NCBI GenBank assembly: GCA_904386005.1
Contig: CAJFKR010000001.1
Span: forward strand, 139,525-203,524
Direction: 5' to 3'
Length of the DNA stretch: 64,000 bases
DNA from: Candidatus Flemingiibacterium merdigallinarum
GTDB lineage: Bacteria > Bacillota > Clostridia > Oscillospirales > CAG-272
Part shown: positions 2,715 through 42,166 of the stretch, piece by piece
Layout of the letters: each line of letters opens with the position of its first letter
Numbering within the stretch: the stretch's first letter is position 1
Notes under the pieces: generated by a model
The model's database searches: none
What the model saw: only the letters and a program-made list of their open reading frames with translations
What the model was told of the DNA's origin: nothing
Program-made: the position numbers and the translations under genes

Positions 2715-5456
2715 TCACTCCTCGCTGCCGCCGCTTACATTCGACTCGGCCATAATATCGACGAGCGCGTGTACCATTGACGCGGTTTCGGCGCGGGTCG
2801 CCGGCTCGCTCGGGCAGAGCTGTCCGTCGCGGCTCGGGTAGATGTCGTTCATCAAAAGCCAGCAGACCGGCTCGTATGCCCAGTCGGAGACGTCGTCGGC
2901 GTCTTCGTAGTCGAGACGGAACATCCACAGTCCGTCAAAGCCGCCGTCGTGGTATTGCAGATAGCGGTAGAGTATCGCCGCGAGCTGCTCGCGTGTGACC
3001 TCGTTGTTCGGACCGAAGGTGACCTCGTCGTAGCCATTGACGATTCCCTCTGCCGACGCCCAGCGAACCGCCTCGCTGTACCACTCGTCCTCGGGCACAT
3101 CGTCAAACTGCATCAGGTAGTTGACGACCGGACAGCCCTCGGCGCGCCAGAGTATAGTCACCGCCATCGCGCGGCTCAAGGTCAGGTCGGGCGCGAACAA
3201 TCCGCCAGGCAGACCGTCCATCAGCCCGTTTTCGGTCACAAATTTGACGTCGTCATAATACGGGCTTTCCTCGTCGATATCCGAATAAGGATTCTCCCAC
3301 GGCAGCGGCGCGAACACGGCTTCAATCGTATGGTCTTCGCGCACCCGTTCGAGGGTGAAGCTGCCATCGGCGCCGACCTCGTCGATTCGGCTTTCGCTGT
3401 CAACTATGATATCAGCGAGCATATAGCCGTCGTCAGGCGTCAGGGTGTAGCCGACGCTGCCGTCATAGCGCACCTCAGTTGTGCCGGCAGGCGAAATCGT
3501 GCCGCCGTCGGTCGCGGACGCGGTGACGTCGAAGGTTTGATTCAATATCGGAAGCAGCCAGATGAAGTCGTCGTCGGAATCGTCGGGTTCGGGTTCGTCA
3601 GGCTCTTGATCTATCGGCGTGTATAGTGCGGTCACATCGACCGGATATTCAGGCATTATGAATACGATTTCGGGCTTGTATTTGTCGGCTTCGGTGAGAT
3701 ATCCGTCGGCAATCAGCTGCTCGAGCCCCTGCCATTGGCTGAATTCTTTGTCGTCGTATTCCTCGGCGGTCAACCGAACCGCGGTGCCCTCATAATGTTC
3801 GGTAACGATTCCATCTACAGTCACCGAAAACGGAGTTTCGTCTGTGACGTCAGACAATACTACCTTGCCTTGGTCTATACGCAGTACGTATGTGTCGCTC
3901 ATATAGCGCAATGCCGCAAGATCCTGCGCGGTTATTGTGTATCCGTTATAGCCGGTCGCCAGCAGCAGATTATCACATTCAAGCCATGTATAGAAGTTGA
4001 GCGCTGCGCCGGAGGTGAGTCCGGCGATTTCTATATTTGAATAGCCGTAATTGTGGTTTCCGTCCGGATAAAGACCGCCGTCGGTCTCCTTGTCGGAGGT
4101 ATTGCCGGTTACGATCGGATTTCCACTTATGATGATATTGCCAAACGGCGAGCAATAAATTCCTCCGGCGTGAATGACCGCGTTATTGTCGGCTACACTT
4201 CCGCCGTGCAGCTCGAGCGTGCCGTCGATGTTGACAAAGATTCCGCCGCCGACTTTGATTGCCTTATTATTTGAGATTGTTCCGGACTCGAGTGTGAAAA
4301 ACGAGTCGGAGTTATCCACATACACGCCGCCGCCATACGTCGTCGCGGTGTTGTCTGAAATTTCTCCGCCAGACATAACGACGCTACCGCTGACTATGTA
4401 GACACCGCCGCCCAGCTGCGCGGTGTTGTTCGAGATTTGCGCGCCTTCCTGAATATACAGCTTGCCGTCGATCAGGCAGACTCCGCCGGACGCGCCGTTT
4501 TTGGTCGTGTTGTTGTTATTGCGCACGACCGCGCCGTCGCCGAGCGTGAGGCTGCCGCCGTTTATCGCGATGAGTCCTCTCGACGCGGTCAGTCCCTGCT
4601 CGCTGCCGCCGTCGACAATTACATTATTCAGCTCCACAGCATCGGAAATCTGAAGCAGATAGCCGTGCTTATCCTTTGTCGTGGATATTGATTTTGCCGC
4701 GCCGTCACTGGTTATAGTCAGACTTTTTTCAAGCGAGACAGTCGATGTGAGCTCGACGTCATTGATAAGATATATTGTGCCGCCGTCATACGAGTTTTCC
4801 ACAGCCTCGGCGAACGAGCCGGGCTGCCAGCTCTGTCCGGGCGCGGTCTGATATCTGGCGTCGGCTTCCTCAATAATGCTGAAGCTGAAGGTCAGCTGAC
4901 CTTTGTATTTTGCGGTATTCTTGGGCGCGATTGTGACTTCATATGTGCCGACCTCAACCGGCAAGGACGGGAGAATTTCGCCGGTGTCTTTTTTATAGGT
5001 TATATCATAATCGCCGTTGAAGTCCGAGCCGTCGGTGAGCTTTCCGCTGAGATTGATATATCCCGGATGCGGGTTGCCGTCGTACAGCACATTCTGCGGC
5101 TCGGCGGTGATGTTGACTATGTACTGTCCGGTGAGGCGTACATTGATATTGCATATGATAGTATCGCCGGTAGTGGTCGTCAGCTCGACGACAAGCGTCG
5201 TTGACACCGGCTCCTCAAAGGCTCGGGTGCTGAATTTCATATATCCATTCTGTTGCAATATCGGAACGGTGTAACCGGAGACTATACTGCTGTCATAAGA
5301 GAGCAGTTCGCCTGACGAAAGCTCTGTTTCCTTGGGCAGATATTCGAGAAAGTTGATTCTGAACTGCTGCTCGGTGTCGACCGGAGCTGACACATTGATA
5401 TCGACAGTCTGCGTGTCCGCGCTCAACGCAAATGTCAGGCAGACTGACAGCAGCAT
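2715..5456 (-). CDS. Large cell-surface protein: Ig/MBG-like N-terminal region, parallel beta-helix with GGGVY/GGGIF repeats, two Listeria-Bacteroides-type repeats, three C-terminal SLH domains
   Basis: 913-aa ORF. SLH motifs are present, e.g. FDDVPEDEWYSEAVRWASAEGIVNGY and ASMVHALVDIM-type ends. The annotated Met lies inside a signal-peptide h-region. The real ATG with its RBS is at 5488 in another frame (see finding). Confidence 0.8.
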   Translation of the reverse strand: MLLSVCLTFALSADTQTVDINVSAPVDTEQQFRINFLEYLPKETELSSGELLSYDSSIVSGYTVPILQQNGYMKFSTRAFEEPVSTTLVVELTTTTGDTIICNINVRLTGQYIVNITAEPQNVLYDGNPHPGYINLSGKLTDGSDFNGDYDITYKKDTGEILPSLPVEVGTYEVTIAPKNTAKYKGQLTFSFSIIEEADARYQTAPGQSWQPGSFAEAVENSYDGGTIYLINDVELTSTVSLEKSLTITSDGAAKSISTTKDKHGYLLQISDAVELNNVIVDGGSEQGLTASRGLIAINGGSLTLGDGAVVRNNNNTTKNGASGGVCLIDGKLYIQEGAQISNNTAQLGGGVYIVSGSVVMSGGEISDNTATTYGGGVYVDNSDSFFTLESGTISNNKAIKVGGGIFVNIDGTLELHGGSVADNNAVIHAGGIYCSPFGNIIISGNPIVTGNTSDKETDGGLYPDGNHNYGYSNIEIAGLTSGAALNFYTWLECDNLLLATGYNGYTITAQDLAALRYMSDTYVLRIDQGKVVLSDVTDETPFSVTVDGIVTEHYEGTAVRLTAEEYDDKEFSQWQGLEQLIADGYLTEADKYKPEIVFIMPEYPVDVTALYTPIDQEPDEPEPDDSDDDFIWLLPILNQTFDVTASATDGGTISPAGTTEVRYDGSVGYTLTPDDGYMLADIIVDSESRIDEVGADGSFTLERVREDHTIEAVFAPLPWENPYSDIDEESPYYDDVKFVTENGLMDGLPGGLFAPDLTLSRAMAVTILWRAEGCPVVNYLMQFDDVPEDEWYSEAVRWASAEGIVNGYDEVTFGPNNEVTREQLAAILYRYLQYHDGGFDGLWMFRLDYEDADDVSDWAYEPVCWLLMNDIYPSRDGQLCPSEPATRAETASMVHALVDIMAESNVSGGSEE

Positions 5457-17354: not shown

Positions 17355-17446
17355 TGGCGGAGAAGCAGAGATTCGAACTCTGGAGACCCTTTTAAGGCCT
17401 ACACGATTTCCAATCGTGCGCCCTCGACCAGCTAGGCGACTTCTCC
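17355..17446 (-). tRNA. tRNA-Ser (anticodon GGA) with encoded CCA
   Basis: Hand-folded cloverleaf. Acceptor GGAGAAG/CTTCTCC. Anticodon stem CACGA/TCGTG with loop TTGGAAA. Long variable arm. T-arm CAGAG-TTCGAAT-CTCTG. Discriminator G plus CCA. Confidence 0.93.
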
Positions 17447-37426: not shown

Positions 37427-38962
37427 TTACTGCCCGAACTTGAGCTTCGCGAGACCTCCCTCGGCGGTCTCCTTGTATTGGCGCGAAATGTCGAGTCCGG
37501 TCTCCTTCATCACGTGTATGACCTTGTCGAGCGAAATTTTGCGCGAGTCGACGAGGAAGCTCGCGAGGCTGACCGCGTTTATCGCGCGCATTGCCGCGAC
37601 CGCGTTGCGCTCGATGCAGGGGATCTGCACAAGCCCGCATATCGGGTCGCAGGTCAGACCTAAGTGGTGCTCGATGGCGATTTCGGCGGCGTATTCAATC
37701 TTGTCGAGGTCGAGTCCGAACAGCTCGGCGAGCGACGCCGCGGCCATCGCGCAGGCTGAGCCGATCTCCGCCTGACAGCCGCACTCGCTGCCCGATATCG
37801 ACGCGTTCGTCTTGATGAGGTTGCCGACGACACCGCCCGCCGCGAGCGCGCGCAGTATCTCCATATCGGTATAGTCGCGCTTCTTCTGCTGATAGTATAA
37901 AACCGCCGGCAAAACTCCCGACGAGCCGCAGGTCGGCGCGGTGACTATCGTCTCGGCGCAGGCGTTCTGCTCGCTGACCGCGAACGCGTAAGCGCAGACC
38001 ATGCGGTTCTCGCGCGTCTCGGCACTCTCGTCTATATGCTCGCGGCATAAAAGCTGCTTTGCCTTTTTCTGCACGCCGAGTCCGCCCGGGAGTATGCCCT
38101 CGTCGGCGAGTCCGCGCTCAATGCTCGCTTTCATGCCGCGCCAGATTTCGGAGAGGTAGTCCCAGATGCCGCTGCCCTCGGCGCGCTCGACATACTGCCA
38201 GAGCCGCAGATTGTTCGCGCGGCACTCCTTCGCTATCTTCTCGAACGACGATACCGGATAGACGTCGGGCGGCTCGGGCAGCAGGTATTTGTCGTTCTCG
38301 AATCTTCCTCCGCCGGTGCTGACAACGCGGATGCGGTCAATCTGTGCGCCTTGTCTGAACGCGATCATGTCCATTGTGTTCGGGTGCGGCAGGTCAAGCT
38401 CGGTCGTGTTGAAAATGATATCGCAGCTGACCGGCGCCAATGTGGCTTTGATTACCCGGTCGGTGCCGTGACCGATTCCGGTCTTGGCGAGCGAGCCGTA
38501 GAGTATCACCTTGAAACGGTCGGCGGTCGGGTTCTTCTCGCGGAACATACGCGACGCGCGTTCGGGCGCTATAGTGTGCGAGCTCGAGGGTCCGCGCCCG
38601 ACGAGGTATAGCTCGGTCAGCGATTTCATACCGGTGGGAGAGGGCTCATCTCTGATTTCAGATTGCAGCTCGCTGCCGAAAAAGTAATCGACCGGAACAT
38701 TGAAGATTTTCGCGAGCTTATACACATTCTCGGTTGACGGCAGCGCGAGTCCGGTCTCCCATTTCGAGACGGCGCGGTTGCTGACGCCGAGCCGCTCGCC
38801 GAGCTCTCGCTGTGTGATGCCGCTGCGTCTGCGCAGCGCGGCGAAGGTCTTAGCAAAGGCTGTGTCTTTAGCAAAGGCTGTGTCTTTAGCAAAGGCTGTG
38901 TCTTTAGCAAAGGTTTCGCCTTTAGCAAAGGCTTTGCCTTTGGCAAATTCGTTTTCGTTCAT
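37427..38962 (-). CDS. XRE-type HTH domain fused to single-chain iron-sulfur L-serine dehydratase (beta + alpha domains)
   Basis: HTH ITQRELGERLGVSNRAVSKWETG. Dehydratase motifs GRGPSSSHT and APTCGSSGVLPAVL. N-terminal FAK-type hexapeptide repeats. Confidence 0.85.
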   Translation of the reverse strand: MNENEFAKGKAFAKGETFAKDTAFAKDTAFAKDTAFAKTFAALRRRSGITQRELGERLGVSNRAVSKWETGLALPSTENVYKLAKIFNVPVDYFFGSELQSEIRDEPSPTGMKSLTELYLVGRGPSSSHTIAPERASRMFREKNPTADRFKVILYGSLAKTGIGHGTDRVIKATLAPVSCDIIFNTTELDLPHPNTMDMIAFRQGAQIDRIRVVSTGGGRFENDKYLLPEPPDVYPVSSFEKIAKECRANNLRLWQYVERAEGSGIWDYLSEIWRGMKASIERGLADEGILPGGLGVQKKAKQLLCREHIDESAETRENRMVCAYAFAVSEQNACAETIVTAPTCGSSGVLPAVLYYQQKKRDYTDMEILRALAAGGVVGNLIKTNASISGSECGCQAEIGSACAMAAASLAELFGLDLDKIEYAAEIAIEHHLGLTCDPICGLVQIPCIERNAVAAMRAINAVSLASFLVDSRKISLDKVIHVMKETGLDISRQYKETAEGGLAKLKFGQ

Positions 38963-39912: not shown

Positions 39913-40084
39913 ATGAGACTCACCCCCCTCGACATAAATTTTGTATTATCGTGTATTTGCTTGCTGCGTCGGTTCATAGTACTATTGTACCACATTTCGC
40001 TCGGGATTACAACAAGAATTTTCGATGTGATAATATTAACGTAAAAATAGAAGCAGGGAGAGTTTCCTCTCCCTGTAAATATTG

Positions 40085-41626
40085 TTATTCGTCGTCGTCG
40101 ATCGAGGTCTTGGAGCGGACGAGCACCTTCTGCTCGTAGCAGGAGAATATCGAGTCGACGTCGTTTTTAGGCTTTGGCGTCAGGTAGCTGACTATCGGTA
40201 CAATGATGAGACCGAGTGTCATCGCGATTGCGCCGGCGTTTATCGGCGAGTCGATGAAGCCGATGAACATATTCGAAACGGTCAGTCCGACGCCGGTTAT
40301 AAAGCAGACCCAGACCGCGGCTTTCGTGACGCGCTTCATGTACAGACCGTACAGGAACGGCGCGAGGAAGGCTCCGGCGAGCGCGCCCCACGAGATGCCC
40401 ATCAGCTGCGCGATGAACGCGTTCGCCGAGTGGTACTGCATAATCGCGATGACCGCGGATATGACTATAAACACCGCGACAAGTATACGAATCGACAAGA
40501 GCTGCTTCTTTTCACTCATGTTCTTTATAATGCTGCCGCGCAGCAGGTCGAGCGTCAGCGTCGAGCTCGAGGTCAAAACGAGCGACGAAAGCGTCGACAT
40601 CGAAGCCGAAAGCACAAGGATTATGACAATGCCTATGAGTATATCCGGCAGGGTCTCGAGCATGGACGGGATGATCGAGTCGTAGACCGGCGCGCCGTTA
40701 TTGTATTCGACAACGTCGCCGAACAGTCTGCCGAAGCCGCCGAGGAAGTAGCTGCCGCCCGCGACCACGAACGCGAACAGCGTCGAGATGATCGCGCCCT
40801 TCTTGATGTCGTTCTCATGCTTTATCGAGTAGAATTTCTGCACCATCTGCGGCAGTCCCCATGTGCCGAGCGACGTCAGTATAACGACTCCGAGCAGTCC
40901 GAGCGGGTCGGGACCGAAGAACGAGGAGTACGCGCCCTGCATATTCGCCGCTGTGCCGGTCGCCTCGGACGGTATCTGCGAAAGCGAGGTCATAGCCTCC
41001 ATGAAGCCGCCCTTGCCCGAAAGCACCGCGCCGATTACCGCGCAGATGCCGACCAGCATTATTATTCCCTGAAGGAAGTCGTTTATAGCCGTGGCTGTGT
41101 AGCCGCCGAGGATTACGTACACCGCGGTCAGCGCCGCCATCGCGAGCACACACCAGGTGTAGTCGATACCGAACGCCATGCCGAACAGACGCGAGAGTCC
41201 GTTGTAAACCGACGCGGTATAGGGAATGAGGAACACGAACGTGATTATCGCCGCCGCGATTTTGAGCGGCTTTGAGTCGAAGCGTTTTTCGAAGAATTCA
41301 GGCATAGTGCTGGCGTCGAGGTGATGAGTCATTACCCGCGTGCGTCTGCCGAGGATGACCCAGGCAAGCAGACTGCCGATGAGCGCGTTGCCGACGCCGA
41401 TAAAGGTAGAAGCGATGCCGTACTTCCAGCCGAACTGTCCCGAATAGCCGACGAAAATGACGGCCGAGAAGTATGAGGTGCCGTACGCGAACGCGGTCAG
41501 CCAAGGTCCGACTGAGCGTCCGCCAAGCACAAAGCTGTTGACACTGGTCGCGCGCCTACGGCAGTATATGCCGACCGCTACCGTCATGGCTACAAATATC
41601 AGTATCATCAGGATTTTTGCAAACAT
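40085..41626 (-). CDS. Sodium:solute symporter (SSF) family transporter
   Basis: About 13 TM segments and an SSF-like N-terminus (FVLGGRSVGPWLTAFAYGTSYFSA). AAAGGAA RBS before ATG 41626. Confidence 0.85.
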   Translation of the reverse strand: MFAKILMILIFVAMTVAVGIYCRRRATSVNSFVLGGRSVGPWLTAFAYGTSYFSAVIFVGYSGQFGWKYGIASTFIGVGNALIGSLLAWVILGRRTRVMTHHLDASTMPEFFEKRFDSKPLKIAAAIITFVFLIPYTASVYNGLSRLFGMAFGIDYTWCVLAMAALTAVYVILGGYTATAINDFLQGIIMLVGICAVIGAVLSGKGGFMEAMTSLSQIPSEATGTAANMQGAYSSFFGPDPLGLLGVVILTSLGTWGLPQMVQKFYSIKHENDIKKGAIISTLFAFVVAGGSYFLGGFGRLFGDVVEYNNGAPVYDSIIPSMLETLPDILIGIVIILVLSASMSTLSSLVLTSSSTLTLDLLRGSIIKNMSEKKQLLSIRILVAVFIVISAVIAIMQYHSANAFIAQLMGISWGALAGAFLAPFLYGLYMKRVTKAAVWVCFITGVGLTVSNMFIGFIDSPINAGAIAMTLGLIIVPIVSYLTPKPKNDVDSIFSCYEQKVLVRSKTSIDDDE

Positions 41627-41649
41627 ACGAACATTCCTTTCGAGATATT

Positions 41650-41980
41650 TTCGAAAGGGCAAAAGAAAACGCCCTTCCGTAATCGTAATTACAGAGGACG
41701 AATAAATCGTGTTACCACCTCAGTTCGCCTGCCCCTCACGAGACAGACCTCAGAAAGTACTGGACAGACGTGCGCACGCGTCCACATACTCGGCGCCAGA
41801 TAACGGCGGCGTTCCGTTACCGCTTAATTGTACAGGCAAATGAGCCCTTCCGTTCGCAGTACAGCTCTCGGGATGTAATATTACTCTGCGATGCTCCGCG
41901 CCTCTCACCAACCGGCGGCTCTCTGTGGTATCGCGTGCGAGTATATCCGGACAAATCCGGTTCCCGGTCACAGCTTTTAT
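41650..41980 (-). promoter_or_regulatory. T-box riboswitch leader
   Basis: On the minus strand: Stem I AG-box plus distal loop AGAGAGCCGCCGGTTGGTGAGAGGCG, F-box CCGTTA, AGTA box, and T-box core AACTGAGGTGGTAACACG (plus coordinates about 41708..41725). Confidence 0.7.
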
Positions 41981-41986
41981 ATTTTT

Positions 41987-42015
41987 ATTATATCACCATA
42001 TTGAAGCTTTGTCAA
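41987..42015 (-). promoter_or_regulatory. sigma-A promoter of the T-box leader (TTGACA-17-TATAAT, exact)
   Basis: On the minus strand, TTGACA is at 42010..42015 and TATAAT at 41987..41992. Confidence 0.65.
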
Positions 42016-42166
42016 TAGTTATTTGCAAAAAAATGAAAATTTTGTCTTAAGCGGGCGACCCGACGCGGTCTCAGCCAAGACCGCGAATAAGCGGAGCTCG
42101 AGCGGTTATACTATGGATGATTCGGCAAAGCTCTGCCGAAAATCATTATTTGAAAGGTTTGTATAT

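Follow-up and report, generated by a model that had tools for sequence, protein, structure and literature searches.

The tyrS leader of Bacillus subtilis, a class I T-box, presents the specifier codon UAC and a following purine on the 3′ side of an internal loop in Stem I. It also has a kink-turn (K-turn), an AG bulge with a distal loop, Stems II, IIA/B and III, and an expression platform in which an antiterminator with a 7-nt UGGN bulge and a terminator with its U-tract exclude each other. All of these elements recur in a leader that we describe here from Candidatus Flemingiibacterium merdigallinarum (contig CAJFKR010000001.1), within a 64,000-nt stretch of DNA that was analyzed as a whole and is hereafter called the window. 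Positions are numbered along the window; the leader and the gene behind it lie on the minus strand. Unlike the tyrS prototype, this leader precedes the gene of an SSF/SSS-family sodium:solute symporter instead of a tRNA synthetase, and it has an extra hairpin between Stem IIA/B and Stem III. Furthermore, in the clade to which the window belongs, a hairpin stands where the class I prototype has the 5′ AGUA, while the 3′ GAA and the S-turn of Stem II are degenerate.

Known deviations that are specific to a lineage include streptococcal glyQ T-boxes, whose specifier loop has lost its GAA (PMC11404447), stem Sa of staphylococcal glyS, and insertions in Staphylococcus aureus met leaders (PMC11404447, PMC9177973, PMC7913692); the extra stems in such cases stand elsewhere in the leader (PMC11404447, PMC9177973). 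What the present leader shares with them is a framework that tolerates, within a lineage, both the loss of the S-turn signature and additional stems, whereas its own insertion lies inside the specifier loop, opposite the codon. In the literature we searched, whose coverage was incomplete, no T-box was described in which a hairpin takes the place of the S-turn strand that faces the codon.

As for the regulated gene, the transporters behind Tyr T-boxes were of the NhaC and NSS families only in the survey by Wels et al. (2008, PMC2494555), and the T-box-controlled families listed there (ABC, APC, DAACS, LIVCS, MFS, NhaC and NSS) do not include SSS. Our case is likewise a secondary transporter behind a Tyr T-box in Firmicutes, but it belongs to the SSS/SSF family and comes with an aryl-acid context. 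A full-text literature search returned no paper joining a T-box with a solute symporter.

A T-box leader upstream of an SSF-family carrier gene

The regulated unit comprises the following elements:

41987..42015, minus strand: sigma-70 promoter, with TTGACA at 42015..42010 and TATAAT at 41992..41987
41661..41980, minus strand: entire T-box leader, Stem I through the terminator U-tract (RF00230 match and terminator analysis)
40085..41626, minus strand: gene for the SSF/SSS-family sodium:solute symporter (513 residues, ATG at 41626)
40054..40075, minus strand: terminator past the stop codon of the transporter gene (9-bp stem with 6 GC pairs, then CUUCUAUUUU)

An initial annotation, made from the letters of the sequence, had called a T-box leader here and had proposed a search with Rfam model RF00230 and a comparison of orthologous leaders as checks. 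The search returned an end-to-end match (model positions 1–219) at 41691..41980 on the minus strand, scoring 71.8 bits, with E = 1.4e-15 in a local search and E = 1.4e-13 when the 64-kb window was compared with all 4227 Rfam families. The match is thus significant, though below the gathering score of the family, and chance cannot account for it, as it lies far beyond what chance would give. The promoter, described in that annotation as an exact consensus, indeed agrees with it at 12 of 12 positions and has a TG extension within its 17-nt spacer. Transcription is predicted to start at about 41980, the same base at which the RF00230 match begins. The other elements listed for the minus strand, namely the AG-box with the distal loop, the middle stem, the F-box and the T-box core, all proved to be where they had been placed.

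The open reading frame (ORF) directly downstream, 41626..40085, is the SSF carrier that the T-box had been said to control: it scored 199.8 bits against Pfam SSF PF00474 (cut-off 22.8) and 204.3 bits against TIGR00813 (cut-off 184). Its scores for the equivalog models of PutP (TIGR02121, 201.3 vs 515.5 bits) and PanF (TIGR02119, 158.1 vs 328 bits) remained below the respective cut-offs, and the carrier is neither of these proteins. The regulated unit is monocistronic, because the strong terminator at 40075..40054 sits past the stop codon.

For comparison, we assembled 80 genomic loci of carrier homologues and 8 loci of the closest relatives (75–83% protein identity), designated here by L numbers. 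A T-box was found directly upstream of the carrier in 9 of the 80 homologue loci (the distant leaders L001, L009, L030, L045, L063, L066, L068, L074 and L078) and in 8/8 of the closest relatives (the close leaders L081, L082, L084 and L086–L090). All 17 of these orthologous SSF leaders are full-length RF00230 matches, and the gathering score is exceeded by L068, L030, L063 and L074 as well as by the linked leader of L010 (93.5–112.5 bits). A metagenome scan with the 16-mer ATTACATYCCGAGAGC added, among the matches listed, two real leaders, L123 and L180, both nearly identical to L081, the others being due to chance. The region is a genuine T-box leader, specific for Tyr, that controls the SSF carrier.

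Specifier codon

The codon is positioned as follows:

41877..41875, minus strand: specifier UAC (Tyr), followed by A at 41874; U at 41873 opens the closing helix

At the specifier position, UAC is found in the window and in each of the 17 orthologous SSF leaders, as well as in the leader of the ligase operon at L010; no other triplet keeps a constant distance from the closing helix in this set. The base that follows is A in 15 of the 17 orthologues. In the distant leaders, GAA, 0–1 nt, UAC and A succeed one another just ahead of the closing helix, the exception being L001, with UAU-UAC-U. Specifically, the region reads GAAUACAU in L063, L066, L009, L045 and L078, GAAUACAG in L068, GAAAUACAU in L030 and GAAUUACAU in L074. 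This register of GAA, codon, purine and helix is the canonical one. The close clade keeps UUAC-A-U-CCCGAGAGC, from which L090 deviates with UUAC-U-U, and the window itself reads UAAUAU-UAC-A-U-CCCG. The comparison with orthologous leaders therefore bore out the best guess of the initial annotation, UAC for Tyr, which was kept at the same position in all 17. In two-codon families such as Tyr, one specifier is preferred in >85% of leaders, and a 3′ C is always favored over a 3′ U (TBDB, PMC7778990).

A variant Stem I

Stem I is made up of these elements:

41863..41975, minus strand: Stem I in its variant form (from covariation, RNAalifold and a single-sequence fold)
41975..41973 (AGC), bulge UGU and 41969..41968 (GA), with 41867..41866 (GA) and 41865..41863 (GCU), minus strand: K-turn at the base
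41966..41962 / 41873..41869, minus strand: helix CGGGA / UCCCG
41947..41960, minus strand: clade-specific hairpin CCGGA-UUUG-UCCGG in the 5′ strand of the specifier loop
41943..41939 / 41886..41882, minus strand: helix UACUC / GAGUA
41934..41930 / 41892..41888, minus strand: middle helix GCGAU / AUCGC
41899..41924, minus strand: AG bulge (AGAGA) and distal loop (GGUUGGUGAGA), sequence AGAGAGCCGCCGGUUGGUGAGAGGCG

The GA pairs of the K-turn align to RF00230, and the flanking helices 1 and 2 co-vary. At the other end of the stem, the AG bulge and the distal loop align to the invariant AGAGA and GgUUGGUGaaA of the model, and they are invariant in A2, our MAFFT alignment. In T-boxes this distal platform, an interdigitated T-loop structure, stacks on the elbow of the tRNA.

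The specifier loop is where the window departs from the model. Canonically, the 5′ side of this loop reads GGGaA-gAAGUA, and the distant orthologues retain both AGUA and GAA. The window lacks this S-turn (loop E) signature: the 5′ AGUA is replaced by the hairpin at 41960..41947, and the 3′ strand has UAAUAU instead of GAA. The variant clade comprises 10 nonredundant leaders, namely the window, L081, L082, L084, L086–L090 and, in addition, L001 (77.3 bits). Throughout the clade the hairpin stands directly 3′ of CCGGGAA, and its sequence changes while its pairing is kept: CCGGA-GAUA-UCCGG in L081, CGGCA-GAAA-UGCCG in L090, CUG-GAAA-CAG in both L087 and L089, and a 7-bp version in L084, within a clade range of 3–7 bp. 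The 3′ GAA has become UAA, GGA, UGA or AGA. The UACUC/GAGUA helix also differs from one orthologue to another (e.g., GUUU/AAAC, GUCUUU/AAAGAC and GGGGU/ACUCC).

A2 was built blind to structure, and helix c is shifted in some of its rows, so that some cells of helix 4 are undercounted in the figures that follow. Even so counted, 91.1% of the cells were paired in the three-way-junction structure, as against 29.5–45.0% when the partners were slid by 1–3 columns. Of the 29 Stem I pairs, 14 were altered on both sides, and 0 of 500 shuffles reached the observed values. For the extra hairpin (helix 3), compensatory changes were seen at 4 of 5 pairs, with 97.7% of cells paired. The same three-way junction emerged from RNAalifold and from the single-sequence fold of the window. 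Covariation supports a structure in which the hairpin replaces the 5′ S-turn strand and creates a three-way junction at the specifier loop.

The initial annotation was right in calling Stem I atypical, but not in its reason, an AGAGUA motif on the 3′ side: AGAGUA is a helix strand that varies between orthologues, and the real difference is the hairpin that replaces the 5′ AGUA. It is because Stem I deviates in this way that the clade scores fall below the Rfam threshold. A covariance model of the clade Stem I (R1), used for searching only, gave 103–132 bits for clade members and 44–61 bits for canonical orthologous Stem I sequences. We regard this form as a variant of one lineage rather than a new class. 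Presenting the codon from a three-way junction, without an S-turn, would provide a natural experiment on how the S-turn contributes to codon presentation.

Stems II to III and the expression platform

Downstream of Stem I, the leader contains:

41817..41862, minus strand: Stem II (Rfam alignment), with a loop insertion and a degenerate S-turn (UUAA for AGUA)
41794..41816, minus strand: Stem IIA/B pseudoknot region, loop CGCC at 41811..41808 and GGCG at 41797..41794
41806..41801, minus strand: F-box CCGUUA
41727..41749, minus strand: Stem III (Rfam alignment)
41725..41708, minus strand: T-box core AACUGAGGUGGUAACACG
41694..41721, minus strand: antiterminator, with GAGG at 41721..41718, ACGA at 41710..41707 / UCGU at 41701..41698, and CCUC at 41697..41694
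41717..41711, minus strand: 7-nt antiterminator bulge UGGUAAC, whose UGGU is complementary to a tRNA ACCA end
41700..41670, minus strand: intrinsic terminator CGUCCUCUGUAAU-UACG-AUUACGG-(A)-AGGGCG, 13 bp, −14.0 kcal/mol
41669..41661, minus strand: terminator U-tract UUUUCUUUU

Stem II, the Stem IIA/B pseudoknot with its F-box, and Stem III are all present in the RF00230 alignment. By eye, the pseudoknot loop and its partner co-vary (GCGUC/GACGC in L087, GCGUU/AACGC in L089).

The antiterminator of the window has a predicted stability of −5.2 kcal/mol, within a range of −4.9 to −13.4 kcal/mol over the 18 leaders compared, and the bulge reads UGGUANC in 18/18, a 7-nt UGGN bulge as in class I. 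The UGGU predicts a tRNA with A73 as its discriminator base. A73 fits tRNA-Tyr.

The initial annotation had recognized no clean terminator with a U-tail and had considered translational control. Folding revealed a terminator that a simple scanner missed owing to a bulged A. The 3′ strand of the antiterminator forms the first 7 nt of this terminator (41700..41694), so that the two structures are mutually exclusive, as in class I. Overlapping terminators with U-rich tails occur in 18/18 leaders, starting 2–6 nt before CCUC, with energies of −12.9 to −25.4 kcal/mol. Because the terminator overlaps the antiterminator and is kept in every leader, control appears to be by transcription attenuation, in a class I design.

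Proposed mechanism and competing explanations

The sigma-70 promoter at 42015..41987 would drive a leader of ~355 nt that acts as a class I T-box riboswitch for tRNA-Tyr. Stem I would offer UAC (41877..41875) to the GUA anticodon, while the distal platform would stack on the elbow of the tRNA. An uncharged tRNA would pair through its free ACCA end with UGGU at 41717..41714 and stabilize the weak antiterminator against the stronger terminator; RNA polymerase could then read through into the single SSF-family gene at 41626..40085. Charged tRNA-Tyr would not make the UGGU contact, and transcription would end at 41661. Since such a switch would open the carrier gene in response to uncharged tRNA, the transporter would supply tyrosine when Tyr-tRNA charging falls. 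Taken as a whole, this explanation, an attenuating class I tRNA-Tyr T-box with a variant Stem I driving an SSF carrier, is in our view very probably right.

Several observations weigh against it. The window match of 71.8 bits is below the RF00230 gathering score of 93, the membership cut-off of the family, and for that reason a default Rfam gathering-score scan of the 64-kb window reported only a tRNA, the T-box surfacing under E-value thresholds; the clade leaders, at 52–77 bits, all lie below the same score. Both strands of the Stem I S-turn are missing, and the clade members L090 and L001 carry a U, not a purine, after UAC. The window also has no tRNA-Tyr gene with which to check anticodon and discriminator, its lone tRNA gene being for Ser-GGA. 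Finally, whereas the elements of sequence and structure, with their covariation and conservation among orthologues, are observed, tRNA binding and the response to charging are carried over from established T-box knowledge and would apply here by analogy. The low scores and the missing S-turn would also be accounted for if the leader were a decaying, nonfunctional remnant, the S-turns of Stem I and Stem II both being degenerate. However, the same variant is kept in 10 nonredundant clade leaders, compensatory changes occur in every Stem I helix, neither the distal platform nor the T-box core varies, and promoters as well as terminators remain intact, all of which makes decay very improbable. The low scores do have a practical consequence, as leaders of this clade are missed by standard pipelines and the carrier stays labeled "sodium:solute symporter".

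We give equally little credence to a T-box that acts on translation, where a functional terminator would be absent and tRNA binding would free the Shine–Dalgarno (SD) sequence. The SD GAAAGG is indeed held in an 8-bp hairpin (41658..41636), and translational T-boxes occur in Actinobacteria. Here, though, the 13-bp terminator and UUUUCUUUU overlap the antiterminator exactly as in class I, in all 18 leaders, and the SD lies ~55 nt past the antiterminator, outside the competing helix, unlike in known translational T-boxes. That the leader might sense another tRNA, through AUU-A (Ile) or CGG-A (Arg), alternatives which the initial annotation had also named, is scarcely credible. AUU-A does overlap UAC in the window and the close clade (AUUACAU), but most distant orthologues lack it, reading GAAUACAU or GAAUACAG, and UAC alone keeps the fixed distance to the closing helix; in the Rfam alignment, GAA-CGG-A falls on the GAA of Stem II. 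Because the position of UAC is constant across leaders, AUU-A is mostly absent and CGG sits in Stem II, the assignment to Tyr is well supported by the comparison.

A possible relay from the terminator to the ribosome-binding site

Between the terminator and the start codon, three further elements can be delineated:

41660..41653, minus strand: post-terminator element GCCCUUUC, complementary to GGAAGGGC at 41678..41671 and to the SD region
41658..41651 / 41643..41636, minus strand: hairpin CCUUUCGA / UCGAAAGG
41641..41634, minus strand: SD sequence GAAAGGAA

These elements suggest a possible, if unlikely, second layer of control in which attenuation would be relayed to the ribosome-binding site. 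In antiterminated RNA, the freed GGAAGGGC (41678..41671) would pair with GCCCUUUC (41660..41653), so that the SD stays accessible; in RNA that has escaped a folded terminator, GCCCUUUC would pair with the SD instead and block translation. The B. subtilis trp leader combines TRAP-dependent attenuation with sequestration of the trpE SD in read-through transcripts, and it offers a conceptual parallel, termination backed by a refolding that sequesters the SD. In the trp leader, however, the effector is a protein and not a tRNA, and the relay considered here is a prediction backed by about half of the orthologues.

In the window, the predicted duplex of GCCCUUUC with the 3′ strand of the terminator has −16.7 kcal/mol (z = −5.0 vs shuffles), and two full-length conformations of the leader are near-equal in energy. 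Among the 17 leaders, 15 contain a complement of their own terminator 3′ strand within the 32 nt past the terminator (z from −3.1 to −5.7; −12.8 to −20.0 kcal/mol). By eye, this pairing co-varies (GGCGGAGG/UUUCCGCC in L084, CAGUU/AACUG in L066, CGGAGGGC/GCCUUCCG in L074). When the antiterminator was enforced instead of the terminator, the predicted probability of the SD being unpaired rose in about half of the leaders, e.g., from 0.22 to 0.51 in the window, from 0.27 to 0.64 in L081, from 0.44 to 0.84 in L086 and from 0.23 to 0.94 in L066. On the other hand, SD accessibility was unchanged in L084, L088, L001, L009, L063, L068, L074 and L078. Terminator 3′ strands are also trivially SD-like, as they complement the CCUC of the T-box, and a degree of anti-SD complementarity would arise in any case. 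A control set of T-box leaders from unrelated genes was sought, but none occurred among the fetched loci, the one apparent extra T-box, at L010, proving to be part of this same system. All these values are thermodynamic predictions.

In L045 (~2810..3000, plus strand), a segment of ~40 nt, UAUGCCCUGCCUGUUUUGUGAAACAAAACAGCGCGCAGGA, occurs by eye twice between the terminator and the SD.

Gene neighborhoods of relatives and the candidate substrate

Some anaerobes make aromatic amino acids from arylacetates by activation to the CoA thioester, reductive carboxylation by an indolepyruvate oxidoreductase (IOR) and transamination, a route described for Methanococcus maripaludis (Porat et al., as cited in PMC4162585); rumen anaerobes form Phe from phenylacetate (Allison 1965, as cited in PMC7356843), and 4-hydroxyphenylpyruvate is accepted by IORs (PMC13285125). 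The literature we searched assigned no transporter to this route and contained no T-box control of it. Relatives of the window carrier stand in arrays with genes of this kind, either a PaaK-type ligase together with IorAB and an aminotransferase (L023) or, under a Tyr T-box, a FadD-like ligase (L010, L030, L068 and L078), whereas the window carries the transporter alone.

The presence of a T-box is patchy on the carrier tree, with occurrences on both sides of the root, and the specifier is always Tyr. At L010 (927..4539, plus strand), a Tyr T-box (109.4 bits, GAA-UAC-A) is followed by a FadD-like acyl-CoA ligase and then by the carrier. The order is Tyr T-box, carrier, ligase at L068 (1608..5138), L078 (2517..6228) and L030 (2618..5919), where the gaps are 30 nt and 19 nt (both from ORF coordinates) and ~55 nt, respectively. 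Ligase-first loci other than L010 had neither a T-box nor any other Rfam element upstream. We found no report, in the literature searched, of a CoA ligase under tRNA-Tyr control.

More broadly, about 33 of the 88 loci (with carriers 63–70% identical) tie the carrier to aryl acids or aromatic 2-oxo acids, through either their CoA activation or their oxidoreduction. The FadD-like ligase adjoins the carrier in 15–17 loci; its NCBIfam matches are generic and below the cut-offs, so that its substrate is not assignable, and its nearest solved structures are FadD13, FadD5, feruloyl-CoA synthetase and 4-coumarate-CoA ligase. A PaaK-type ligase adjoins the carrier in 7 loci (its top hit, TIGR02155, scores 462 bits, below the equivalog cut-off of 646), and IorA with IorB does so in 5–6 loci (IorA of L043, 727 bits vs 651; IorB of L023, 292 vs 222). 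In 13 loci the neighbor is an amidohydrolase of the ACMSD family (Pfam Amidohydro_2; e.g., 276 residues at L050, 124..954, plus strand), a family that includes aromatic-acid (de)carboxylases and would further link the carrier to aromatic carboxylates. At L023 (508..6871, plus strand), a PaaK-type ligase, a 138-residue protein without family match, the carrier, IorA, IorB and a pyridoxal phosphate-dependent aminotransferase all lie on one strand, in what looks like a complete cluster from aryl acid to aromatic amino acid with its own transporter. One-strand arrays of the L023 type were also seen at L043, L065, L079 and L057.

Co-regulation of a CoA ligase by tRNA-Tyr charging would have a rationale only where the compound taken up is a carboxylic acid from which tyrosine is made. 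We see about an even chance that the substrate is such an aromatic acid, most simply 4-hydroxyphenylacetate, judging from these neighborhoods. 4-Hydroxyphenylacetate feeds tyrosine in rumen bacteria. Once imported, the acid would be activated by the CoA ligase, undergo reductive carboxylation by IOR and yield tyrosine by transamination. Import of L-tyrosine itself, the classical reading of a T-box transporter, strikes us as rather unlikely, even though a T-box transporter usually has the cognate amino acid as its substrate (Wels et al. 2008, PMC2494555), the best equivalog-type similarity of the carrier is to the proline carrier PutP (201.3 bits), and neither the window nor the close-clade flanks have a ligase or IOR gene beside the transporter. 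This last point also counts against extending a precursor acid to the window: its 64 kb contain no homologue of the ligase, PaaK, IorA, IorB or the amidohydrolase, and the flanks in the close clade carry unrelated neighbors; the unassignable substrate of the FadD-like ligase weighs against it too. Conversely, import of free tyrosine would fit poorly with the genes that adjoin the transporter in about 33 of 88 related loci (a FadD-like or PaaK-type CoA ligase, IorAB, or an amidohydrolase of the ACMSD family), and it would leave the ligase without a role in the four Tyr T-box operons that pair it with the transporter (L010, L030, L068 and L078). What probability remains goes to a substrate that is neither a precursor acid nor tyrosine.

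The broader proposal, that the Tyr T-box governs the uptake step of aryl-acid salvage, with the carrier as a sodium-coupled importer of 4-hydroxyphenylacetate or a related acid and the leader as a structurally distinct subclass that possibly includes the relay too, is tentative, and we would put it somewhat short of an even chance. If true, the transporter missing from the aryl-acid pathway would be a generically annotated family, with at least 8000 homologues among anaerobes of the gut and rumen. The Tyr specifier, together with neighbors encoding a CoA ligase, IorAB and an aminotransferase, leads to a testable prediction, tyrosine versus 4-hydroxyphenylacetate, for this very large transporter family of gut and rumen Clostridia, Bacteroidaceae and Treponema. 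The question of the substrate bears on the cross-feeding of aromatic acids in anaerobic communities, and 4-hydroxyphenylacetate is also the precursor of p-cresol.

In addition, L029 (4743..6731, plus strand) encodes a 662-residue fusion of an isopropylmalate-synthase-like protein (HMGL-like, IPMS_D2, LeuA_dimer) with a C-terminal AraC-type helix-turn-helix domain, which was also present at L012, L037 and L054.

Other features of the window

17355..17446, minus strand: tRNA-Ser (anticodon GGA), the only tRNA gene in the window
37427..38962, minus strand: 511-residue ORF with an HTH_3 domain (XRE-type, residues 36–106) and L-serine dehydratase beta (114–174) and alpha (264–505) domains
42121..42140, plus strand: terminator-like hairpin TTCGGCAAAGCTCTGCCGAA

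The hairpin stands between the T-box promoter and a divergent gene for a zinc-dependent alcohol dehydrogenase, whose likely ATG is near 42159. The 511-residue ORF would be either an unusual fusion of regulator and enzyme or two genes read as one ORF.

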